From contig CAVRXH010000006.1 of assembly GCA_963725175.1 (NCBI GenBank), positions 5,939,580 through 6,003,579 of the forward strand: 64,000 nt of DNA, read 5' to 3'. Of this stretch, positions 2,698 through 43,562 are shown in pieces; position 1 is the first letter of the stretch, and each line of letters begins with the position of its first letter. A program made the position numbers and the translations under genes. Origin of the DNA: an uncultured Actinomycetota bacterium. Its GTDB lineage: Bacteria; Actinomycetota; Actinomycetes; Streptosporangiales; Streptosporangiaceae. The notes under the pieces were generated by a model. The model was not told where the DNA came from. It saw nothing but the letters and a program-made list of their open reading frames with translations, and ran no database searches.

Positions 2698-3576
2698 ATG
2701 AATAGTGATTCATCCGTGGTGCCGGCTCAGCGACCTGCGGCATCCGCGAGCGGGACCCTGGACGTGCGCGGGGTGACCGTGCGGTTCGGCGGCCTGACCG
2801 CGCTGGACGACGTGTCGCTCACCGCGGCCGGCCAGCAGGTGACCGGGATCATCGGCCCGAACGGCGCCGGCAAGACCACCCTGCTCAACGTCCTGTGCGG
2901 CTTTATCCGGCCGCAGTCGGGCCAGCTCAGCTTTGACGGGCAGCGACTGGCCCGGCTGCGGCCGCACAAGCTGGCCCGGCTGGGCATCGCCAGGACACTC
3001 CAGGGCGTCGGGCTGTTCGCCGGGCTGACGGTGGCCGAGAACGTGATGGCCGGCGCGGCCGGCGGCGACCGCGCGGGCGCGTGGCGGGCCGGCTTCTGGC
3101 CGGCCGCGCTCGGCCTGCCGGTGTCAGACGGCCGCCAGCGCGCGCTCCGCGCGCTGGCGATGGAGACGCTGGACCGGCTCGGCGTGGCGGACCTGGCCGA
3201 CGAGCTGCCCGGCGCGCTGCCGCACGGGCCGCGCAAGCGGGTCGCGCTGGCCAGGGCGATGGCGGCCCGGCCGAGGCTGCTGCTGCTCGACGAGCCGGCC
3301 AGCGGCCTGAGCGAGAGCGAGCTGCCTGAGCTGGGCGAGCTGATCACCGAGCTGGCCCGGCAGGCCACGGTCGTGGTGATCGAGCACCGGATGGACCTGA
3401 TGATGTCGGTCTGCGAGCAGATCTTCGTGCTCGACTTCGGCAAGGTGATCGCCTCGGGAACCCCGGCCCAGGTTCAGGCCGACCCGGCCGTCACCGCGGC
3501 CTACCTCGGCACCGAGCCGGAAGCGGGTCCGGTCGCCGAGACCGGGGACTCCGGCGAGGAGGCCGGCGATGAGTGA
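2698..3576 (+). CDS. livG: Branched-chain amino acid ABC transporter ATP-binding protein (LivG-like)
   Basis: Walker A GPNGAGKTTLLNVLCGF, signature LSYGQQ-like motif and Walker B LLLDEPASG. The start could alternatively be GTG at 2671. The gene overlaps the next one by 8 nt. Confidence 0.8.
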   Translation: MNSDSSVVPAQRPAASASGTLDVRGVTVRFGGLTALDDVSLTAAGQQVTGIIGPNGAGKTTLLNVLCGFIRPQSGQLSFDGQRLARLRPHKLARLGIARTLQGVGLFAGLTVAENVMAGAAGGDRAGAWRAGFWPAALGLPVSDGRQRALRALAMETLDRLGVADLADELPGALPHGPRKRVALARAMAARPRLLLLDEPASGLSESELPELGELITELARQATVVVIEHRMDLMMSVCEQIFVLDFGKVIASGTPAQVQADPAVTAAYLGTEPEAGPVAETGDSGEEAGDE

Positions 3577-16174: not shown

Positions 16175-17349
16175 CCCGCCATGCTCAGCCGGGCCAGCGC
16201 GGCCCCGTAGCGGATCGCGACAAGCTGGCCGACCGCTGAGTGCGCGCCCAGCGGGGCCACGCAGGGCGCGCCGAGGGCCGAGCTGATCGCTTCCAGCTCC
16301 CGCCGAGGAGTTTCCGGGCCGATCAGGCACGGGGCGATGACCGGCCGCTCGGCACCCGCCTCGCGGAGCCTGGCCAGCGCGGCGTCGATGCTGGCCGGGT
16401 CGTCGATCGAGGCCGGGGCCGTCGGCATGGCCAGCCGGGAGGCCAGCAGCACCGCCGCGACACCCGCCGCGCCAGTCGCCTCTACGCCGCGGTCGGCGAG
16501 CACTATGACGCCGTAGTTCGTGGTCGAGATAGACAGGCCGCGAGACCGCGCGTTGCGGGCCAGGCCCGCCTCCGCCAGCCGGGCGTGCAGCGCCTCGGCG
16601 ATCAGCGGGTGCGGTCCCAGGTGCGCGCCGAGCATGACCTGCCCGCCGGCGCCTTCCGCCGCCCTGGCCAGCGCCGCGTCTATGGCCTGATGCGGGCCCG
16701 CGAGCAGCGGCACGATCACGCCGCCGAGCGCTCGCTCGCCGGCCGGCACCTCGTCGAAACGCAGGCAGTCGGTCAGCCGGTGCGCGTCCCCGCCCAGGAA
16801 GCCGACCCGGATCTCGACGCCGGGGCACGAGGTTTCCGCGGTAGCCGCGATCTGCTCGATCGTCCCGATGTGCTCGCCGTCGGCGCCGCCTGGAACCGCG
16901 ATGACCAGGGCCGGCGCGTCCGAGGACACGCTCAGCCGGTGCGGGCTGCGGTGCCGCCCGGCCGGCCGGGTCCGCATGGTCCGCCGGGGCAGGGCGCCGT
17001 TTCGCTGCGGCATGTCGTCACCGCGCTGCGGCAGTCCTCCGTCGCGCTGGGGGAGCCCGCCGTCGCGCTGCGGGAGCCCGCCATCGCGCTGCGGGAGCGG
17101 CTCGCCGCGCCGGGGCAGCGACTCGGCCGCCGGCAGCGGCGCGAGCGAGTCGCTGGTGGTCTCGCTGGAGGCCGGCCGCTGCGGCCGTTCGAACAGGCTG
17201 CCGCCCGATGCGGTCGGGTTATCGCCGCCCGGCTGCCTGCGCCGGGGCAGCGGGGCTGACCCCGGCGAGGGTTCACGCCAAGGCGGCTGCTGCGGATCCG
17301 GGCTCTGGTCAATCACGATGACGTATCGTAATCGCTGGTGGCGGCGCAT
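16171..17349 (-). CDS. Sirohydrochlorin chelatase (CbiX/SirB family) with an N-terminal low-complexity Pro-rich repeat extension
   Basis: Two CbiX-like halves (ALVIAVPGGADGEHIG…; VIVLADRGVEATGAAG…). The N-terminal 120 aa carry LPQRDGG repeats. An alternative internal start is the ATG at 16977. Confidence 0.65.
   Translation of the reverse strand: MRRHQRLRYVIVIDQSPDPQQPPWREPSPGSAPLPRRRQPGGDNPTASGGSLFERPQRPASSETTSDSLAPLPAAESLPRRGEPLPQRDGGLPQRDGGLPQRDGGLPQRGDDMPQRNGALPRRTMRTRPAGRHRSPHRLSVSSDAPALVIAVPGGADGEHIGTIEQIAATAETSCPGVEIRVGFLGGDAHRLTDCLRFDEVPAGERALGGVIVPLLAGPHQAIDAALARAAEGAGGQVMLGAHLGPHPLIAEALHARLAEAGLARNARSRGLSISTTNYGVIVLADRGVEATGAAGVAAVLLASRLAMPTAPASIDDPASIDAALARLREAGAERPVIAPCLIGPETPRRELEAISSALGAPCVAPLGAHSAVGQLVAIRYGAALARLSMAG
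16995..17097. repeat. Tandem 21-bp repeats (about four units) inside the CbiX 5' coding region
   Basis: cgtcgcgctgggggagcccgc / cgtcgcgctgcgggagcccgc / catcgcgctgcgggagcgg…, encoding (PQRDGGL)n on the minus strand. Confidence 0.7.
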
Positions 17350-17440
17350 TGTCTGTGTTCTGCGATGTTCGCACCTTAACTACGTATGTCACCGTTTCGT
17401 GCTACCGGCCTTGCCCGGTTTGTACCCTCTGCTGCCAGTG

Positions 17441-17809
17441 CTAGTCGTCCCGCAGCATGCTGCGGTAGACGGCGATGAGCGCACTCCGCTGCTCCGGGCT
17501 CAGCCGCCCCTCAGCCTTGATCGCGTCCTCTACACCCGGCGCAATCGCTGCCCCGCCGCCCGACCGGTCGTGCCGCAGCAAGCCGGCCTGAGCGAGCAGC
17601 GTCTCGGTTGAGACGTTCAGCGCGTCTGAGATCAGCCGGATCACCCGCACGCTCGGCTGGTGCAGCCCGCGCTCGATCTGGCTGAGGTAGGGGTTGGACA
17701 GCCGGGTGCGCTCAGCGAGCTGCCGCAGCGACAGGTTGGCGAGCTTGCGCTTGTCGCGAATGAAGGCGCCAAGCGCCTCCATCTGGCCATCCCACGGTGG
17801 TTCGGTCAT
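17441..17809 (-). CDS. XRE family helix-turn-helix transcriptional regulator
   Basis: ATG at 17809. HTH LSLRQLAERTRLSNPYLSQIERGLHQPSVRVIRLISDAL. Confidence 0.7.
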   Translation of the reverse strand: MTEPPWDGQMEALGAFIRDKRKLANLSLRQLAERTRLSNPYLSQIERGLHQPSVRVIRLISDALNVSTETLLAQAGLLRHDRSGGGAAIAPGVEDAIKAEGRLSPEQRSALIAVYRSMLRDD

Positions 17810-17925
17810 CGGTGCCTGCCTGGCTTCACGGTCAGTGGTCAGTAGGTAGGTGCCTGGGTGCGTCGACGTCCGCCTGCCTGTCAGCGATCGGCGGCGGGCG
17901 GGCCTAGCAGCCCGCCCGCCGCCGA

Positions 17926-18921
17926 TCACGCCTCGGGCTTGTCAGCCTTCTGGCTGCCGCCCTTAGCCGTCCGGCTGGCCGCCTTCTTGGTCCCGGCCTG
18001 GCCAGCCGTGGTGTCCGTCTTCCCGGCCGTGCCCGTCTTCCCGGCCGTGCCCGTCTTCGCGGCGGCAGTGCCGCTCTTCCGGGCAGCGGTGGCGGACTTC
18101 GCGGCGATGGTGCCGGCTTTTCCGGCAGTGGTGCCGGTCTTCGCGGCGGTGGCGCTGGCCTTCGCGGAGCTCGTCGTCGGGCTCTTCTTCGGCGTGGTCT
18201 TCCGCGCCCGAGCCCGCGGCGTCGCGGTCTCGGTGGCGTCGCCCTGGCCGCCGTCCGTCCCGTCCGCGTCGCTCGCGGCGTTTCCGGCCGCAGCGGTGTC
18301 AGCGGCAGCGGTGTCAGCGGCAGCAGGGCTGGCGTGAGCATCGGCCGGGCCGGGCTTTGCCTGGCCGGTCGTCATGCTGCCGTGCGTGGCGCTCTCCTGC
18401 GCGGTGCCGGGGTCGTGCGCGACGGGCGTGCTGCTGGCTGTCCCCGAGCCGGGAAGCGCGGCGCGGACGGACTGGGCTGCCTGGACGGCCTGGCCAATCC
18501 GGTTCACGCCCTGGGCCAGCAGCGGCCCGGCGACCTGGGCGCCGCGCGCCAGGATCGGGCCAGCCGCCTCGGCGACCTGCCCAGCGATCCTGGTCCCGGC
18601 CGCGAACGCCTGCTCGGCGACGTCCTGTGCGCCGCTCAGCAGCTTCTCCCTGCTGGGCAGCTTCGGCATAGGCGGCGTCTGGATCTTGATGTCGGGCAGC
18701 TTCATCTCGGGCAGCTTGAGGTCCGGAAGCTGCGGCCGGAATGACTCGGCGGCGGCCGTCAGGCTCTTGACGACCTCGGCCACCGTCTCCTGGCCCTTGC
18801 GGAGCTGCTCGGGGGCGTTCTTCGCCTGCTGCTGTGCCTTGCGGGCCTGCTCCTGCGCCTTACGGGCGGCTCCGATGAGCTGATCTTGCAGCTCCTGCCC
18901 GACGGCCTTGGTGTCGATCAT
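17926..18921 (-). CDS. Hypothetical protein with a coiled-coil-like N-terminus and a Lys/Ala/Thr/Gly-rich basic histone-like C-terminal tail
   Basis: ATG at 18921 with a GGAGGA RBS. The tail …KTTPKKSPTTSSAKASATAAKTGTTAGKAGT…TAGKTGTAGKTGTAGK is encoded by degenerate tandem DNA repeats at 17990-18180. Confidence 0.55.
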   Translation of the reverse strand: MIDTKAVGQELQDQLIGAARKAQEQARKAQQQAKNAPEQLRKGQETVAEVVKSLTAAAESFRPQLPDLKLPEMKLPDIKIQTPPMPKLPSREKLLSGAQDVAEQAFAAGTRIAGQVAEAAGPILARGAQVAGPLLAQGVNRIGQAVQAAQSVRAALPGSGTASSTPVAHDPGTAQESATHGSMTTGQAKPGPADAHASPAAADTAAADTAAAGNAASDADGTDGGQGDATETATPRARARKTTPKKSPTTSSAKASATAAKTGTTAGKAGTIAAKSATAARKSGTAAAKTGTAGKTGTAGKTDTTAGQAGTKKAASRTAKGGSQKADKPEA

Positions 18922-19346
18922 CGCGTGTGTCCTCCTCGCGTCTGCTGCAAACTATATCAAGCAAATCGCGTGCTATGCCAAGCGCCCCAGCTAGCGACGC
19001 CGGGGCGAGGCAGTTCCGCCAGGTCGGCCACGCCGGCACCGCTGCCAGGTCGGCTGCACCCGCATCTCCCTAGGTCGCCCACGACGGCATCGCCGCCACC
19101 TCGGCCACGCCGGCATCGGCATCCCGGCAACAGTGGATGCGGGTTTGCTGCGGTCGCCACGGCAGCAAAACCCGGCTCGCTGCCGCTGGGTCCGGCGTGC
19201 CCCCATCTGCTTCGCGCCCGCTGGGGGCGGTGCTACGCCCGCGCCGGCTCGCTGCCGCTGGGCCGCCGTCGGCTGCCGGCCACGCCGTGCTTGCTGCCTG
19301 CTGAGGTCGGCCGCCCGGCGGGCGAAACCCGCCGGGAACTAGCAAC

Positions 19347-19400
19347 AGTGAACCCGCTTTTACTGTCGCTGAAACGACAGTAAAAGCGGGTTCACTGTCG
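19347..19400. other. Perfect 23-bp inverted repeat (hairpin) with a 6-nt loop
   Basis: CAGTGAACCCGCTTTTACTGTCG-ctgaaa-CGACAGTAAAAGCGGGTTCACTG. Confidence 0.8.
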
Positions 19401-19434
19401 TAGGCGTCCGCAGTTCAGCTGATAACAGCAAGAG

Positions 19435-19560
19435 GCAGGGCAGGGCAGGGCAGGGCAGGGCAGGGCAGGGCAGGGCAGGGCAGGGCAGGGCAGGGCAGGG
19501 CAGGGCAGGGCAGGGCAGGGCAGGGGCAGGGGCAGGGCAGGGGCAGGGGCAGGGGCGGGG
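19435..19560. repeat. Pentanucleotide microsatellite (GGGCA)n: about 18 perfect units followed by degenerate GGGGCA/GGGGCG units. G-quadruplex-forming on the plus strand
   Basis: A direct read shows cagggcagggcaggg… for about 90 nt, then caggggcaggggcagggcaggggcaggggcaggggcggggcgg. A GA-rich G-tract region continues to ~19740. Confidence 0.95.
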
Positions 19561-19716
19561 CGGTGACTGGGGGAATGAAGATTCGGTTTGCGAAGGATTT
19601 GGCGGGGTGGAGGGCGGAATTTTGGGGGCCGGGGAAAGGCGGGGAGGTGGAGAGACGAGGGGATAGCCAGGGGTGGCGCGTAATGCGCCGGAAGTCGCGC
19701 CGAGGGGGGCGCGGGG

Positions 19717-20001
19717 CTAGCCGTGCAGGGGGTGCGGGCTAGCGGGCTTGCTCGCGACCACGTAGGCGGCGAAGAGAATCGCTCCGGCAATCAGCGTGAC
19801 CCTGGTCCACCTGGGGGCGCCTTTCCAGCTGAAGCCGGCGACCAGCATGGCGGGGACGGTGAGGATCGGAACGACGACTAGGCCGATGATGGCCGCGACC
19901 ACGGCGAATGTTCCGGTGCGCTTGCTGTTCAGCGCACCTTTCGGAATGAGTGCCACGCACTGAGCGTAACTCCGGGTAAACAATTCGTACAGGAATGGCA
20001 A
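19717..20001 (-). CDS. Small hypothetical membrane protein (two TM segments)
   Basis: Hydrophobic stretches FAVVAAIIGLVVVPILTV and TLIAGAILFAAYVV. The start is uncertain; an internal GTG lies at ~19956. Confidence 0.35.
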   Translation of the reverse strand: MPFLYELFTRSYAQCVALIPKGALNSKRTGTFAVVAAIIGLVVVPILTVPAMLVAGFSWKGAPRWTRVTLIAGAILFAAYVVASKPASPHPLHG

Positions 20002-20241
20002 CTGCGAGAATGATCACAGCGACCCTGGAGAGGCCCAAAATCCGTGGTCAGCCGTCCGGACGCGGCGAAAACGCAGGGGAAACGGCGCTGACGTGGCCGC
20101 CGGGTGCTGACCGGAATGCCAGTGGTCTCGCGCCAGAACGTCTATTTGTGCCAATCAGAGAACATCGCGTATCAAGCTTCCCGCGAACCATTGTTCGCTA
20201 TCCGAATAGCAGCGTGCGACATGTGTTGCTAGCGTTGCGGC

Positions 20242-20745
20242 ATGACCACCGAGCGAGTGCTCCCGGCCCTGGAGGCGGGAGACCGGCAGCTGCTCACGGC
20301 CTTCCTGGATTTCCAGCGGGCCACGCTGGCCACCAAGTGCGCGGGACTGGCCGATGACCAGCTCCGCGAGATGGCGGTCCCGCCGTCCAGCCTGTCGCTG
20401 CTCGGCCTGGTCCGGCACATGGCCGAGGTAGAGAAGAACTGGTTCCGCCCGCTGCTTGAGGGCGACGGCATGGCCGGGATCTGGGCGCCGGGGCTCGACG
20501 TTGAGCCGGCCTTTGACGAGGTGGCGTCGGCCGACGTCGCGGCGGCGTTCACGGCCTGGGACGCCGAGTGCGAGCACGCGCGGGAGCTGGTGGCGGCCGC
20601 GCCTTCGCTGGACGCCACCGGCATGCGCGGCGGCGAGCGGTTCTCGCTGCGCTGGGTGATCGTGCACCTGATCGAGGAGTACGCACGGCACAACGGGCAC
20701 GCGGACCTGCTGCGCGAGCGAATCGACGGCTCGACCGGCCAGTAG
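20242..20745 (+). CDS. DinB/DUF664 family protein (mycothiol-dependent transferase-like four-helix bundle)
   Basis: C-terminal family motif WVIVHLIEEYARHNGHADLLRERIDG. Confidence 0.7.
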   Translation: MTTERVLPALEAGDRQLLTAFLDFQRATLATKCAGLADDQLREMAVPPSSLSLLGLVRHMAEVEKNWFRPLLEGDGMAGIWAPGLDVEPAFDEVASADVAAAFTAWDAECEHARELVAAAPSLDATGMRGGERFSLRWVIVHLIEEYARHNGHADLLRERIDGSTGQ

Positions 20746-20938
20746 CCGCGCCAGCCAACGCGCCCCGGCGGTGACGGACTCTTTGCCTGGCCCGGCGTTG
20801 ACATCGTGCGGACGCGGAGCCAGGCTCGAACCGCAAACGATTGTGGCATGAGGCGATAAGCCGGGATCTGTGCTGGCGCCCGTCGCGGTCACCCCCGCGC
20901 ACGTCGCCCGTGCATGACCCAGGCGAGGCGAGGTGGCC

Positions 20939-21889
20939 ATGTCCGAGCTGAGTTCCGGTGGCCGGGCCGGCTGGCTGGGAACCGGGCGCATGGGGTCCGC
21001 GCTGGCCCGTCGGCTGCTGGCCGGCGGCTGCGACGTGACGGTGTTCAACCGGACCGCGAAGCGGGCCAGCCCGCTGGTCCAGGCGGGTGCCAGGCTGGCG
21101 GAAAGCGCCGCCGAGCTGGCCGGCCTGGACATCGTGTTCGTCACCGTCGGCACTTCCGACGACCTGATCACCGCGCTGCTCGGGCCGGACGGGGTGCTGT
21201 CGGGCCAGGGCGCGCCGCCGGTGGTGGTGGACTGCTCGACGGTGTCGGCCGACGCCTCGCTGCTAGTTCGCGAGCGGCTGGCCGGGCACGGCGCTGCGCT
21301 GCTGGCCGCCCCGGTGATGGGCAACCCGCGGGCCGCCGCGGCGGGCCTGGCGACGCTCGCGGTGTCCGGCCCGCGCACCGCGTTCGAGCAGGCGCGGCCC
21401 TACCTGAGCCTGCTCGGTTCTGGCGCGACCTACGTGGGCGATGGCGAGCAGGCCAGGGTGGTGAAGCTGTGCCACAACCTGTTCCTCGGGGTGGTGTCTC
21501 AGTCGCTGGCCGAGATCGCGGTGCTGGCGGAGAAGAGCGGCGTCAGCCGGCAGGCGCTGATGGCCTGCCTGAACGCCAGCGTGCTCGGCTCGGCGTTCAC
21601 CAGGTACAAGACGCCGGCGCTGGTCAACCTGGACTTCGAGGCGACGTTTACCGGCACGCTGCTGCGCAAGGACTTCGACCTGGGCCTGGCCGCCGCCAGG
21701 GAGCGCGAGGTGCCGATGCCGGTGGCCGCGCTGGTGCACCAGCTCGTGCAGGGGCTGGTCGGGCACGGCTACGGCGACCTCGACTTCGCCGCGCTGCTCG
21801 CGATCCAGGCGGCCTCGGCAGGCCTGGATCTGGCCAGCGAGGACGCCCCGGTCTCCGACGGCCTCGACCCGCCAGGCCCGCCGCCCTAG
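20939..21889 (+). CDS. NAD(P)-dependent oxidoreductase, 3-hydroxyisobutyrate dehydrogenase (HIBADH) family
   Basis: Rossmann motif GWLGTGRMGSALARRLL. The HIBADH-family catalytic region follows. Confidence 0.8.
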   Translation: MSELSSGGRAGWLGTGRMGSALARRLLAGGCDVTVFNRTAKRASPLVQAGARLAESAAELAGLDIVFVTVGTSDDLITALLGPDGVLSGQGAPPVVVDCSTVSADASLLVRERLAGHGAALLAAPVMGNPRAAAAGLATLAVSGPRTAFEQARPYLSLLGSGATYVGDGEQARVVKLCHNLFLGVVSQSLAEIAVLAEKSGVSRQALMACLNASVLGSAFTRYKTPALVNLDFEATFTGTLLRKDFDLGLAAAREREVPMPVAALVHQLVQGLVGHGYGDLDFAALLAIQAASAGLDLASEDAPVSDGLDPPGPPP

Positions 21890-21915
21890 CCGCCCGCCCG
21901 CGCGAGACCAGAGCC

Positions 21916-23115
21916 TCAGACCCAGATTGACCCCAGCGCACGGTAGATGTTGCCGCCGAGAACCGCGCGGATCTGGTCGTCGTCGTAGCCGTGGCTGACC
22001 AGCCAGCCGCAGATGTTGGCGAAATTCTCCGTCGGGTTCTCCAGTCCGTCCACGTACTCGACCCGCTCGAAGGCCGGCCCGCTGGTCGCTCGGCCGAGGC
22101 CGAGCAGGTGGCCGAACACCCGGTGCAGCCCGACATGATCCCCGTAGAGGGTGTCCGGGCCGAACGCGACGTGCTCCAGGCCGACCAGCTCCGCGCAGTA
22201 CTCGAAGTGATCCATCACCGAGGAGATGGTGTGCCGGGGATGCGCGCCGGACAGCGTGGTGTGCGGGGCGGCGGACATGCCGATCACCCCGCCGGTTCCC
22301 GCCACCGCGCGGAGCACCGCGTCGGGCTTCATCCGGGGCGTGTCCCAGACCGCCCGCGCGCCCGCGTGGGTGAGGAACACCGGCGCGCTGGTGAGCTCGC
22401 AGGTGTCCAGCGCGGTCCGGTCCGAGGAATGGGACAGGTCGATGGCCAGGCCTAGCCGATTCATCCGGGTCACCGCGCGGCGGCCGAGCGCGGTCAGCCC
22501 GCCGTCGCGGGCCTCGTTCAGCCCGCTGCCGAGGGCGTTGGCGTCGGAGTAGGCGATGCCGATCTGCCGCAGCCCCAGCCCGTACAGGACGTCGAGCCGG
22601 TCGATCTCGTTCTCGATGGGCGTCGCCGCCTCCAGCCCGAACACCAGCCCGACCCGCCCCGCCGCGTGCGCGGCGTCGATGTCGGCCAGGCAGCGGATCA
22701 CCGTCACCGCGCGCTGGTGGGCCAGGTCGGCCTGGCGCATGCCCAGGTCGGTGATGATGTCGTCCCACCGCCACGGCGCGTTCCCTGTGACGCAGGCGGT
22801 GCCGTCCATCATGTTGTCGAACACCACAGTCATCCCGGAGGCGGCCAGGCCCGCGTAGGCGGCGTGCTGCCGCCCGGTGCGGTTGTAGGCGGGCGTCTCC
22901 TCCATCCGGGCGGGGAACCTGACCGGGTGATCGTGCAGGCTGATCACCAGGCTGCCGTCCAGTAGCCGCGCCGCCCGCTCGCGCTGCGCGGGCGTGAGCC
23001 GCGCCGCGTAAGGCGGCACCCGGCCGAACTCCGGTGCCAGCTCGAACGCGGGGGAGTCGGCACCCGCGCCCAGGTAGGAGTACGCCGTATACGGCCGGCC
23101 AGGGTCGTCAGTCAT
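21916..23115 (-). CDS. Membrane dipeptidase (peptidase M19, renal dipeptidase family)
   Basis: M19 motifs …VISLHDHP…, GLEAATPIENEIDRLDVLYGLGLRQIGIAYSDANA and IDLSHSSD. Confidence 0.85.
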   Translation of the reverse strand: MTDDPGRPYTAYSYLGAGADSPAFELAPEFGRVPPYAARLTPAQRERAARLLDGSLVISLHDHPVRFPARMEETPAYNRTGRQHAAYAGLAASGMTVVFDNMMDGTACVTGNAPWRWDDIITDLGMRQADLAHQRAVTVIRCLADIDAAHAAGRVGLVFGLEAATPIENEIDRLDVLYGLGLRQIGIAYSDANALGSGLNEARDGGLTALGRRAVTRMNRLGLAIDLSHSSDRTALDTCELTSAPVFLTHAGARAVWDTPRMKPDAVLRAVAGTGGVIGMSAAPHTTLSGAHPRHTISSVMDHFEYCAELVGLEHVAFGPDTLYGDHVGLHRVFGHLLGLGRATSGPAFERVEYVDGLENPTENFANICGWLVSHGYDDDQIRAVLGGNIYRALGSIWV

Positions 23116-24529
23116 CGCCAGGTCCTCTCTCGCGCCGAGCCGGCTCGCGCCCGTCCGGAGTCGGCCCAGGCAAGCGAGCCGCGGCGAGCCGGTGCGGTCC
23201 CGCCGCGAGCAGCCGCCAGAGCATTTCCCAGGCTCGCATGCCCTCGCGCAGCCTGGCGATGCGCAGGAACTCGCCCGGCGCGTGCAGCCGCTCGTCCGAG
23301 GTCGAGAACGAGAAGAACAGCGTCTTCACCCCGAGCACTCGCTCGAACAGGTCGGTGGCCGGCAGCGTGCCGGCGATGGCGGCGTGCAGCACCGGCTGGC
23401 CGGGGTAGACCGACTCCAGGGCCGCCGTGGCGGCGCGGATGGCCGGGTGCGCGGCCGGGATCGTGTACGCGGGGACCCGCGCCTGGTCCGGGCGGGTCAG
23501 CACCCGGACGCCGGGCAGGTCCAGCCCGTGCACGTGCGCCTCGATCGCCGCCAGGACGCGATCGGGGTGCTGGCCCGGCACCAGGCGGCAGGACAGGTGC
23601 GCGGTGGCGGCGCGCGGGATGACGGTGTACTTCCCGCCGCCGGAGATCCCGTTGACCTCCAGCGTCGGCCGTTCCCAGAGCCGCTCAAGCGTGGAGTACC
23701 CCGGCTCGCCGTGCGCCTCGCGGAGCCCGAGTCCGCCCAGGTACTCCGTTTCGCTGAAATCGACAGCCGCGATCTGGCGGCGGCGTCCGGCGGGCAGTTC
23801 GGGTACCCCGTCGTAGAACCCGGCTACGGCGACGCCGCCGTCGCGGTCATGCAGGCTCGCGACGATCGCGGCCAGGGCGTGCAGCGGGTTGGCGACCGTG
23901 CCGCCGTACCGGCCCGAGTGCAGGTCGGCAGCCGCGCCCTCGACGGTGATGTCCAGGCTCGCCAGTCCCTTGGAGGCCAGCGCCAGCGATGGCTCGCCCG
24001 GCCGCCACATGGCGCCGTCGGCCGAGATGACCAGGTCGGCGGCGAGCGCGGCGGCGTGCTGGCGGACGAACTCCGGCAGGTGCGGGCTGCCGATCTCCTC
24101 CTCGCCCTCGATGAGGAACTTCACGTTCAGCGGCAGCGCGCCCTCCTGGCCGAGGAACGCCTGCGCGGTCTTGAGCACCAGGTAGACCGGGCCCTTGTCG
24201 TCGGTGACGCCCCGGCCGACCGCGATATCGCCGCGCACCGTCAGCTCGAACGGCGGCGAGGGCCAGTCGGCCAGGTCGCCGGGCGGCTGCACGTCGTAGT
24301 GCCCGTAGACCAGCACGGTCGGCGCGCCCGGCGCGCCCAGCCACTCGCCGAGCACCACCGGGTGCCCGGCGGTGGGCAGCACCCGCCCGCCGGCGAAGCC
24401 GAGCTGCCCGGCTACCCAGTCCGCGGCGGCCCGCATCACGGCGGCACCGGCGTGCCTGCTGACGCTCGGCACGGCGACGTACTGAGCCAGCTCGCCGAGG
24501 TAGCGCGCGTCGTAGCCGAGGGTGAGCAT
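23108..24529 (-). CDS. M20 family metallopeptidase (dipeptidase/ArgE/DapE/CPG2-like)
   Basis: Motifs VYGHYDVQPP and GRGVTDDKGP, with LNVKFLIEGEEEIGSP between the catalytic and dimerisation regions. Confidence 0.85.
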   Translation of the reverse strand: MLTLGYDARYLGELAQYVAVPSVSRHAGAAVMRAAADWVAGQLGFAGGRVLPTAGHPVVLGEWLGAPGAPTVLVYGHYDVQPPGDLADWPSPPFELTVRGDIAVGRGVTDDKGPVYLVLKTAQAFLGQEGALPLNVKFLIEGEEEIGSPHLPEFVRQHAAALAADLVISADGAMWRPGEPSLALASKGLASLDITVEGAAADLHSGRYGGTVANPLHALAAIVASLHDRDGGVAVAGFYDGVPELPAGRRRQIAAVDFSETEYLGGLGLREAHGEPGYSTLERLWERPTLEVNGISGGGKYTVIPRAATAHLSCRLVPGQHPDRVLAAIEAHVHGLDLPGVRVLTRPDQARVPAYTIPAAHPAIRAATAALESVYPGQPVLHAAIAGTLPATDLFERVLGVKTLFFSFSTSDERLHAPGEFLRIARLREGMRAWEMLWRLLAAGPHRLAAARLPGPTPDGREPARRERGPGDD

Positions 24530-24538
24530 GGCCGCGCG

Positions 24539-25234
24539 CTAGCTGTGCCCGCCGTCGATGGCGATGACCTGGCCGGTCACCCACGACGACTGCGGCGCGG
24601 CGAAGAACAGCACCCCGTTGGCGATGTCGGCCGGGTCGCCAAGCCGCCGCATGGCGATGCCCGCGACCAGGTCGCGCTGGCCGCCCGGGCCGTAGCTCTG
24701 CCACTGCGCGATGGTGGTCGGGTTGGACAGGATGAAGCCGGGCGCGATGCAGTTGACCGTGATGCCGAACGGGCCGAGCTCGTGCGCGAGCTGGCGGGTC
24801 AGCCCGATCTGCGCCGCCTTAGCGCTCGCGTAGGCCTGGATGCCCGTCTTGCTGACGCCAAGCCCGGCGGCCGAGGAGATGGTGACGATCCGGCCCCAGC
24901 GGCGCTGCTTCATGCCAGGAACCACCGCCCTGGTGCACAGGAACGCGGTGGTCAGGTTGGCGTTCACCACCGCGGCCCAGTCCGCGTCCGGCACGTCCTC
25001 CAGCGGCCTGCCGACCTGCCCGGCGACCCCGCCCGCGTTGTTGACGAGGATGTCCACCGGGCCGGCCGCGGCGAAGAACGCGCGCACCTGACCGGGGTCC
25101 GACAGGTCGGCGGTGTCGGTGTCCACCGGGTGCACCGTCGCCCCGGCGTCCCGCAGGGCGGCGGCGATGGCCGCGCCGATGCCGTGCGCGGTGCCCGTCA
25201 CCACGGCGTTCTTCCCGGCCAGCCCGGTCGTCAT
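24539..25234 (-). CDS. SDR family oxidoreductase
   Basis: Cofactor-binding motif VTGTAHGIGAA, the NNAG motif and the catalytic YASAKAA (YxxxK). Confidence 0.85.
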   Translation of the reverse strand: MTTGLAGKNAVVTGTAHGIGAAIAAALRDAGATVHPVDTDTADLSDPGQVRAFFAAAGPVDILVNNAGGVAGQVGRPLEDVPDADWAAVVNANLTTAFLCTRAVVPGMKQRRWGRIVTISSAAGLGVSKTGIQAYASAKAAQIGLTRQLAHELGPFGITVNCIAPGFILSNPTTIAQWQSYGPGGQRDLVAGIAMRRLGDPADIANGVLFFAAPQSSWVTGQVIAIDGGHS

Positions 25235-42656: not shown

Positions 42657-43562
42657 TCAGCCCCGGTACGCCACCGTCACGTAGTCCGACGACTTCGCCC
42701 CATAGCTGGACCCGGTCACGTACACCCTGGTACCGGCCGGGCTGACCGCCACCGTGTAGGCGAAGTCGTGGCTGTTGCCCGGCCCCTGGTAGCGGGCCGC
42801 CCACAGTCGCGCCCCGGTCGCCGCGCTGTACGCCACCGTCGCGTAGTCAGACGACTTCGCCGCCTGGCTGCGCCCGGTGACGAACACCCTGGTCCCGCCC
42901 CGGCTGACCGCGATGGCGTTAGGGCTGTCGTAGCCGTACTTGCCGGCGCCGTTGTAGCGGGCCGCCCACAGCCGAGCGCCGGTCGCGGCGCGGTACGCCA
43001 CCGTGGCGTAGTCAGTCGACGTTGACCCGTCGCTGGACCCGGTGACATACACCCTGTTCCCGCCGGGGCTGACCGCCACGGCGGAGGCGTAGTCGTTGCC
43101 GTTGGCCGGGCCGTTGTACCTGGCCACCCATAGCCGCGCGCCGGTCGCGGCGTTATAGGCCACCGTCGCGAAGTCAGCCGACGCTGGCCCCTGCCTGGAT
43201 CCGGTGACGTAGACCGTGGCCCCGTCCGGGCTCACCGCCAGGGCGGCAGCGGTGCCGTCGCGGTAGCGCGCCGTCCACAGCCGCGCGCCGGTCGCGGCGC
43301 TGTACGCCACCGTCGCGTAACCAGTCGGCGTCGCCTGGCTGGACCCGGTCACGTATACCCGGAGCCCGCCCGGGCCGACCGCCAAGGCGGTGGCGGTCCC
43401 GTTGCGGTGGCGCGCCAGCCATAGCCGCGCGCCGCCCGCAGGAACCGGCCGGCCGGCCGCTCCCTCGGCGGCACCCGATGCGGCCAGAGCCGATGCCGCC
43501 AGCGCCATACCTAACGCCGCCGCGCACAATCCGCGCGCCACGTTCCCGCCCATCGGAGTCAT
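42657..43562 (-). CDS. Secreted beta-propeller repeat protein (six PQQ-like repeats of about 48 aa)
   Basis: Signal peptide, then six repeats of the unit …YATVAY.AATGARLW.ARY.G…A.AVSP.G..VYVTGSS…. Confidence 0.65.
   Translation of the reverse strand: MTPMGGNVARGLCAAALGMALAASALAASGAAEGAAGRPVPAGGARLWLARHRNGTATALAVGPGGLRVYVTGSSQATPTGYATVAYSAATGARLWTARYRDGTAAALAVSPDGATVYVTGSRQGPASADFATVAYNAATGARLWVARYNGPANGNDYASAVAVSPGGNRVYVTGSSDGSTSTDYATVAYRAATGARLWAARYNGAGKYGYDSPNAIAVSRGGTRVFVTGRSQAAKSSDYATVAYSAATGARLWAARYQGPGNSHDFAYTVAVSPAGTRVYVTGSSYGAKSSDYVTVAYRG

Follow-up and report, generated by a model that had tools for sequence, protein, structure and literature searches.

Genomic context of the repeat locus

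The array described here lies in a gap of 795 nt that separates two minus-strand genes in the window, the term used below for the whole 64-kb stretch of DNA that was analysed (Table 1). To the right of the gap, a gene encoding a small membrane protein (the small ORF) was identified, whose product of 72–79 aa is kept in congeners and shows 67% identity in more distant relatives. To the left lie a gene for a low-complexity protein of 331 aa, for which no Pfam match was found, and the gene of an XRE-family HTH regulator. Because both flanking genes are encoded on the minus strand, the G-rich strand of the array is the template strand for the two of them. An earlier note on this DNA had placed the repeat about 500 bp upstream of the 331-aa gene and on its template strand, and both parts of this geometry were borne out. 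Exact-protein look-ups with the small ORF and the mycothiol S-transferase (MST) of the window returned no match. The presence of the MST gene identifies the host as an actinomycete, and its nearest relatives place it among the uncultured Streptosporangiaceae.

Table 1. Position and main characteristics of the features around the repeat (coordinates in the window; strand left empty where none applies).
Feature	Coordinates	Strand	Characteristics
122-aa XRE-family HTH regulator gene	17441–17809	-	Directly downstream of the 331-aa gene; anchor of the search for syntenic loci
331-aa low-complexity protein gene	17926–18921	-	Lys/Ala/Thr-rich tail; array 513 bp upstream of its ATG
Conserved block upstream of the 331-aa gene	18922–18996	-	Contains TTGCTTGATATAGTTTGCAGCAG and a GGAGGA ribosome-binding site
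Repeat-laden, fast-evolving portion of the gap	18997–19344		68% identity to L123; unalignable to L124 and L125
Diverged paralogous hairpin module of ~70 nt	19124–19192		Stem TTTGCTGC/GCAGCAAA, the counterpart of TTTACTGT/ACAGTAAA in the copy at 19345–19398
Inverted repeat (perfect 24-bp arms, 6-nt loop)	19345–19398		Flanked on neither side by a T/U tract; separated from the array by 35 nt
17-nt block CTGATAACAGCAAGAGG	19419–19435		Invariant in the window, L123, L124 and L125; left edge of the hypervariable spot
Perfect core of the array	19434–19525	+	18 CAGGG units at 19436–19525, equal to 17 GGGCA units at 19438–19522
Degenerate end of the array	19526–19563	+	GGGGCA/GGGGC units; resembles the imperfect (GGGGC)n at the equivalent spot in L124
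G-/purine-rich non-coding tail	19564–19716	+	Stem-loops at 19675–19689 and 19696–19713 with invariant stems
79-aa small membrane protein gene (small ORF)	19717–19956	-	Array lies 3' of the gene, 154 nt beyond its stop codon
Mycothiol S-transferase/DinB-family gene (MST)	20242–20745	+	Divergent from the small ORF

The block immediately upstream of the 331-aa gene is 93–97% identical in congeners, and its TTGCTTGATATAGTTTGCAGCAG motif is recognisable even in two distant relatives (L122 and L208). This block is likely the promoter or operator of the operon formed by the 331-aa and HTH genes, and the array lies 440 nt away from it. Scans for promoter and terminator consensus sequences between positions 18700 and 20400 returned zero sites, and an Rfam search by E-value across 17000–22000 assigned no family to the tract, the hits being solely spurious matches of miRNA models to the hairpin.

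Two open reading frames cross the tract, one on the minus strand (19392–19790) and one on the plus strand (19563–19742). The first translates the repeat as PALPC units and had been dismissed as not credible in the earlier note, a judgement confirmed by the many indels at orthologous sites that are not multiples of three. A coding reading was rejected for both frames: neither has a Pfam match, and in the congeners they carry indels of the same kind and have lost the ATG.

The remaining parts of the gap are themselves rich in repeats. Four tandem copies of a 26-bp repeat are located at 19017–19118, and a 19-bp direct repeat has copies at 19172 and 19244. The palindromic module occurs as two diverged copies, both within this gap, in the 64-kb window searched. 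The tandem and direct repeats together with the two paralogous hairpin modules indicate that the gap is a general hotspot of duplication and slippage. The hairpin at 19345–19398 is very stable (DNA fold of -30.7 kcal/mol, z = -10), yet it is followed by a T run on neither strand and so lacks the form of an intrinsic terminator. L123 has an imperfect version of this hairpin and L124 only a remnant, and L125/L126 lack it. A search of viral contigs returned no match to the hairpin, and its reading as an attachment site of a phage or mobile element was discarded.

The array begins within the last two bases of the 17-nt block CTGATAACAGCAAGAGG, and its spot is bounded by CTGATAACAGCAAGAGG and AAGATTCGG. 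On its other side, the G-rich tail is C-rich and unstructured on the minus (mRNA-sense) strand. The many indels of 1–3 nt relative to the congeners mark this tail as non-coding. RNAalifold analysis of the tail in five sequences recovered small invariant stems with zero compensatory pairs.

Sequence and composition of the array

Tandem Repeats Finder and direct reading agreed on a period-5 array at 19434–19554 with 23.4 copies, 96% matches and a score of 206, corresponding to ~23 GGCAG/GGGCA units arranged head-to-tail. All other arrays with a period of up to 6 nt found by Tandem Repeats Finder in the 64-kb window score 39 or less. Allowing up to one mismatch, the 15-mer (GGGCA)3 has 16 matches in the window, all within the array, against a mean of 0.11 expected from dinucleotide-preserving shuffles. 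The array is a microsatellite: its unit falls within 1–6 nt, its purity is high and its copies exceed chance for the composition.

The earlier description of a (GGGCA)n repeat of about 24 units, with about 18 perfect CAGGG units at 19436–19525 that then degenerate, was confirmed. Its further statement that a stretch rich in G runs continues beyond the array also held, as the segment 19434–19740 contains 57% G and 36 runs of three or more G, together with zero runs of three or more C. The GC skew peaks at +0.59 in the segment of array and tail, ~6.6 SD from the window mean (-0.002 ± 0.089). The array region is the most strand-skewed and most G4-prone part of the 64-kb window.

Predicted G-quadruplex formation

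The merged canonical G-quadruplex (G4) motif at 19438–19560 spans 123 nt and comprises 24 G-runs separated mostly by 2-nt loops, whereas the runner-up in the window spans 38 nt. G4Hunter assigned a score of 1.78 across 148 nt of the tract. In the quadruplex model of ViennaRNA, the plus strand is predicted to fold into six consecutive three-tetrad G4s at -158.2 kcal/mol, compared with -50.0 kcal/mol when G4s are left out, and the complementary strand folds to just -23.9 kcal/mol. Tracts of the (G3N2)3G3 type are expected from loop-length studies to form very stable parallel quadruplexes. The claim that the tract is a strong G4 candidate therefore stands at the sequence level, where its potential is real, with G3 runs joined by 2-nt loops, a high G4Hunter score and a clear gain in predicted energy. 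By these predictions, the tract qualifies as a canonical putative G4 region (at least four runs of three or more G, loops of 1–7 nt, a high score and a favoured energy).

Serving as template for the minus-strand genes on either side, the plus strand should be single-stranded at times. In that state, its 24 G-runs could form up to six tandem three-tetrad G4s. A conserved functional G4 element was not recovered by comparison with relatives: the array is missing from L123, L124 and L125/L126, and no G-rich tract occurs in this gap in the distant relatives L122 and L208.

Comparison with related genomes

Four syntenic contigs were found through the HTH neighbour, and they represent three distinct sequences (L123, L124 and the pair L125/L126). 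Their nucleotide identity to the window is 88–94%, which marks them as congeners and not strains, so that the locus was compared between species and not at the strain level. A common gene order was observed in all of them, namely the dehydrogenase, MST, small ORF, gap, homologue of the 331-aa protein, HTH and CbiX genes. The array itself is absent from all four of these congeneric Streptosporangiaceae contigs. The claim that the repeat is prone to slippage is consistent with this absence, which the comparison bears on between species.

In the congeners, the stretch that separates CTGATAACAGCAAGAGG from the conserved AAGATTCGGTnTGCGAAGGATTT is 21 nt long in L123, 64 nt long in L124 and of comparable size in L125/L126. 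The sequence found there is irregular, G-rich and different in each, and takes the form of an imperfect (GGGGC)n in L124. A GGCAG motif directly follows AAGAG in L124 and is shifted in L125. It is plausible from these sequences that this motif was the seed of the expansion, and the alignments as a whole support the evolutionary lability of the array spot.

Identity to the congeners differs strongly between parts of the locus, reaching 93–99% in the small ORF, 80–88% in the G-rich tail (19564–19716) and 0–68% in the left spacer (18997–19418). Because the small ORF and the promoter-proximal block are highly conserved and the tail and left spacer are not, the tract can be assigned to the DNA under the weakest constraint in this region. 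The G-richness of 19434–19716 is kept in all five close lineages, and shared ancestry may not fully explain the retention of such extreme G-richness. A metagenome scan with the conserved right-hand block gave zero matches. A metagenome search based on MST recovered distant relatives only (up to 77% amino-acid identity), none with an alignable gap.

Occurrence of the repeat in other genomes

A search for exact (GGGCA)4 matches in GTDB, with each species represented by a single genome, identified at least 120 loci. Among the GTDB matches listed, about half of the loci belong to Actinomycetota, and the arrays are mostly 4–6 units long, with 12 reaching eight or more. Only one of the 120 GTDB matches listed equals the 17 units of the window, that of Micromonospora sp. 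NPDC047527 (L003), where 17 perfect units precede (GGGGC)n and a G-rich tail in an arrangement closely resembling the one described here. None of these 120 shares its flanks with the window, so they do not include the source genome. Arrays of at least six units were also identified in 30 IMG/VR contigs, with 6–22 units. The earlier note had called long repeats of this type rare in bacterial chromosomes. This remains true per genome, but it does not extend to the motif, which recurs in at least 120 GTDB-representative loci and 30 viral contigs, nor to its length, since the Micromonospora genome contains an equal of 17 units and one viral contig an array of 22.

Gene calls at the other loci relied on a GC3-based method that was validated on the window and is crude. 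With these calls, the arrays are intergenic at 80 of the 92 GC-rich loci among the matches listed (~87%). For the 57 loci with genes called on both sides, the neighbours are oriented (+,+) in 16 cases, (-,-) in 16, convergent in 16 and divergent in 9, so the arrays have no strand preference relative to genes. A general rule by which the G-rich strand would be the template of an adjacent gene and would yield a C-rich 3' UTR was rejected on the same balance of (+,+) and (-,-) loci.

In three Micromonospora loci (L003, L014 and L119), the array follows directly or closely after a palindromic element of ~70 nt, GATCTTGCACTT...AAGTGCAAGATC, which is present as a single copy per 8-kb locus. Bacteria are depleted of short tandem repeats overall, and such repeats are indel hotspots, with pentanucleotide repeats showing the strongest effect (PMC12699852). 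Putative G4s are described as enriched in bacterial intergenic DNA (PMC12563890).

Origin and possible roles of the tract

Taken together, the tract is probably a lineage-specific, neutral slippage expansion at a hypervariable G-rich spot, without a dedicated conserved function. Replication slippage of a GGCAG seed at a spot that was already G-rich would have produced the array, and the gap that hosts it would represent near-neutrally evolving intergenic DNA of an uncultured Streptosporangiaceae genome. We infer both the slippage mechanism and the neutrality. The latter is read from the lack of conservation in the aligned sequences and would also be compatible with a lineage-specific role. The 17 perfect units imply that the expansion is either recent or maintained. 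Any link of the tract to gene control is unsupported.

Among the functional alternatives, a terminator or insulator would be the most attractive, and we consider it unlikely overall. The C-rich and unstructured minus-strand RNA, read from 19716 down to 19434, would act as a rut site downstream of the small ORF, the template-strand G4s and the hairpin would pause RNA polymerase, read-through into the 331-aa/HTH operon would be blocked, and the microsatellite would lengthen and strengthen the element. C-rich, G-poor and unstructured RNA is the accepted, textbook signature of rut sites. The RNA-sense strand contains 57% C and 17% G over 281 nt (49–54% C in congeners). No other stretch of the window is as little structured, its predicted minimum free energy being -24 kcal/mol per 200 nt compared with -96 ± 14 on average across the window. 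The composition of a rut region, that is, a C-rich, G-poor and unstructured stretch of at least ~70 nt downstream of a gene, is thus matched by the predicted RNA. In addition, the strand capable of forming G4s is the template strand, and a very stable hairpin comes next in the direction of transcription. Against this alternative, the congeners manage without the array, no C-rich region exists in the distant relatives L122 and L208, and the tail evolves near-neutrally at 80–88% identity. Across the 57 other listed (GGGCA)n loci, the G-rich strand is template and coding strand equally often.

A more speculative form of the same idea, which we consider improbable, is that an insulator may have been extended recently by the microsatellite, in a form on which selection can act. 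Up to six template-strand G4s, Rho-loading RNA and the hairpin would act together, with the number of units setting how far transcription of the small membrane-protein gene reads through into the operon of the low-complexity protein and HTH regulator. If so, a free-living soil actinomycete would possess a switch of the contingency type. A related suggestion, based on the window and the three Micromonospora loci, is that stable intergenic palindromes of actinomycetes may seed adjoining G-rich expansions.

That the array is a contingency (phase-variable) locus, in which changes in the number of 5-nt units switch or tune the expression of a neighbouring gene, is similarly improbable. A long perfect array whose unit is not a multiple of three is the classic substrate of slipped-strand mispairing, and the spot is hypervariable between lineages. 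In a sample (JGI 3300050821) with two contigs of 2851 and 2490 nt whose neighbour proteins are 99–100% identical, a short-read contig breaks off close to the array, ~130 nt beyond the small ORF. However, the array lies outside any credible ORF, 154 nt past the nearest stop codon and 440 nt from the conserved promoter-proximal block, promoter-like hexamers do not flank it, and the neighbouring genes are not of the surface, restriction-modification or adhesin types typical of contingency loci. For a tract that falls outside both ORFs and core promoters, the role of a classical contingency locus is unlikely, and the proposal in the earlier note that the copy number could be phase-variable is, in its regulatory sense, unsupported.

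It is very unlikely that the length or fine structure of the array results from an assembly or base-calling artefact, with a true tract that is shorter, longer or more regular. The source contig of 7,333,967 nt probably derives from a long-read assembly, given this size of 7.33 Mb, and GGGGCA and GGGCA units differ by G-homopolymer length alone, which is a typical long-read error. An independent Logan unitig, L001 from run ERR12035940, matches positions 17669–19463 of the window at 100% identity and ends 30 nt into the array. It shows that the array and its left junction are real, and leaves the copy number and the GGGG/GGG alternation unconfirmed. On the other hand, the left junction and at least five units are exactly reproduced in this independent assembly, GGGGC-type units occur at the equivalent spot in the congener L124 from another sample, and comparable arrays are present in many finished genomes.

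Finally, the array could belong to a composite element, repeated or mobile, in which a palindromic hairpin is combined with a G-rich tail, as seen beside (GGGCA)n in Micromonospora and as the perfect 24-bp palindrome next to the array might suggest. This is the least probable reading, since the hairpin can occur without the array (as in L123) and both are missing from L125/L126, the hairpin of the window is unrelated in sequence to the Micromonospora element, further copies were found neither in the 64-kb window outside the gap nor in viral contigs, and a transposase gene is missing nearby.

If the tract is a product of neutral slippage only, its biological importance is small. It nevertheless offers a natural case of a very long tandem sequence, predicted to form G4s, that is tolerated in a bacterial chromosome. 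It is also a likely source of breaks in short-read assemblies, and strains of this uncultured lineage could be typed with it as a hypervariable marker. The interest of the tract would rise only if its copy number varies within the species and alters the transcription of neighbouring genes, a finding that would extend contingency-locus behaviour or G4-based transcription control to free-living actinomycetes.

Comparison with known repeat and G-quadruplex systems

In 2007, Mrázek, Guo and Shah reportedly described long simple sequence repeats located between the genes of non-pathogenic prokaryotes. The array resembles such bacterial intergenic repeats (Mrázek et al.; PMC12699852) in its short unit, high purity, intergenic location, restriction to one lineage and likely origin by slippage. 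It differs from them in lying at the upper end of their length range (17–18 perfect and ~24 total units) and in its host, an uncultured soil Streptosporangiaceae. The contingency loci of host-adapted bacteria include the CTCTT repeats in the opa genes of Neisseria and the tetranucleotide repeats of Haemophilus. With these, the array shares a perfect tandem structure whose unit length is not divisible by three, which makes it inherently mutable by slipped-strand mispairing, whereas it is located outside an ORF or core promoter and is neighboured by a small membrane protein gene and the operon of a low-complexity protein and an HTH regulator.

Regulatory G4 motifs are known in bacteria from the pilE-linked G4 of Neisseria gonorrhoeae. 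Promoter G4s are also known in Mycobacterium tuberculosis (PMC5515968). Like these, the array combines runs of three or more G, short loops and an intergenic position in a GC-rich bacterium with a strong predicted G4. Unlike them, it contains 24 G-runs (six potential G4s) instead of four, is unconserved in congeners and is not promoter-proximal. The minus-strand RNA, in turn, resembles Rho-dependent rut regions in its content of 57% C and 17% G, its predicted near-unstructured state and its extent of ~280 nt downstream of a gene. This likeness is purely compositional, and the tract region is unconserved beyond the closest congeners.

Among eukaryotes, G-rich repeats include the CEB1 minisatellite, the (GGGGCC)n repeat of C9orf72 and the pentamers of immunoglobulin switch regions. 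In contrast to these, the array is bacterial and has a length of ~120 bp. It shares with them a tandem structure in which multiple G4s are possible, and in the eukaryotic repeats expansion and contraction are tied to replication through structured DNA.

The intergenic gap and the 331-aa gene

The window gap holding the (GGGCA)n array contains two paralogous hairpin modules of ~70 nt each, one of which is a perfect 24-bp palindrome. The stems of the two modules are separated by matched changes (TTTACTGT/ACAGTAAA versus TTTGCTGC/GCAGCAAA). Both modules are present in the congener contig L123, where the counterpart of the perfect palindrome is imperfect, and both are missing from the congeners L125/L126. 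One possible origin of the modules is an element of the REP-like kind, another a duplicated terminator in decay.

Upstream of the gene for the 331-aa protein, the block TTGCTTGATATAGTTTGCAGCAG is retained even in the more distant relatives L122 and L208, and the remainder of the gap in both is unrelated to the window gap. This block is a candidate promoter, or a candidate operator for the co-transcribed HTH regulator. The 331-aa protein itself has no match in Pfam or NCBIfam, and its Lys/Ala/Thr-rich tail is encoded by 21-bp tandem repeats. Homologues are named "ribonuclease R" in some sources, a label probably due to the basic tail. The 548-aa ENA protein P0003 from L122 contains HTH domains and shares 54% identity with the 331-aa protein, which suggests that the 331-aa-type gene and the HTH gene may be fused in this relative.

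Neighbour proteins 99–100% identical to those of the window were observed in JGI sample 3300050821. The short-read contig from this sample stops ~130 nt beyond the small membrane-protein ORF, near the expected array start, which would fit a break in the assembly at the repeat.

Features identified in the window and in related or array-bearing loci
Feature	Sequence	Position	Strand
Hairpin module	Window	19345-19398	
Hairpin module	Window	19124-19192	
Conserved block	Window	18922-18996	minus
331-aa protein gene	Window	17926-18921	minus
21-bp tandem repeats	Window	18005-18167	
Region missing from L123	Window	22238-24571	
Period-162 repeat	Window	42666-43434	
ORF with period-162 repeat	Window	42657-43562	minus
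P0003 gene	L122	6001-7647	
Palindromic element + (GGGCA)n	L003	~2995-3075	
Palindromic element + (GGGCA)n	L014	~400-470	
Palindromic element + (GGGCA)n	L119	~1120-1192	
(GGGCA)12 array	L096	7326-7398	

Other features of the window

Approximately 2.3 kb of the window, encompassing M19 dipeptidase and M20 peptidase genes, is missing from L123, whose sequence (1-298) passes straight from window position 22237 to 24572. Additionally, TRF identified a large tandem repeat (period 162, 4.6 copies, score 723), overlapped by a period-144 array. This repeat lies inside an ORF and therefore probably represents a repeated protein domain.

(GGGCA)n arrays in other genomes

The array in L096, a myxobacterial-type MAG, starts 13 nt past an ATG. 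Just downstream of it, in a different frame, are an apparent lipoprotein signal peptide and an apparent ORF for a trypsin-like protease. The arrangement may be a genuine phase-variable gene start that works by frame shifting. Furthermore, 30 viral contigs from IMG/VR (L209–L238; contig GC 38–66%) hold arrays of 6–22 units, several of them at contig ends. Identical flanks recur among L212, L232 and L237, and in another set comprising L213 and L218.

Three non-homologous loci, each from a different Micromonospora genome, have (GGGCA)n immediately or shortly after a palindromic element of ~70 nt with the termini GATCTTGCACTT...AAGTGCAAGATC. C-rich sequence forms the opposite flank, which in L003 consists of a (GTGCCCTGCC)n array. 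Similar palindromic elements with other GATC-containing termini were observed in loci L003 and L043. Since the element occurs as a single copy in each 8-kb Micromonospora locus, its pairing with the array looks non-random.
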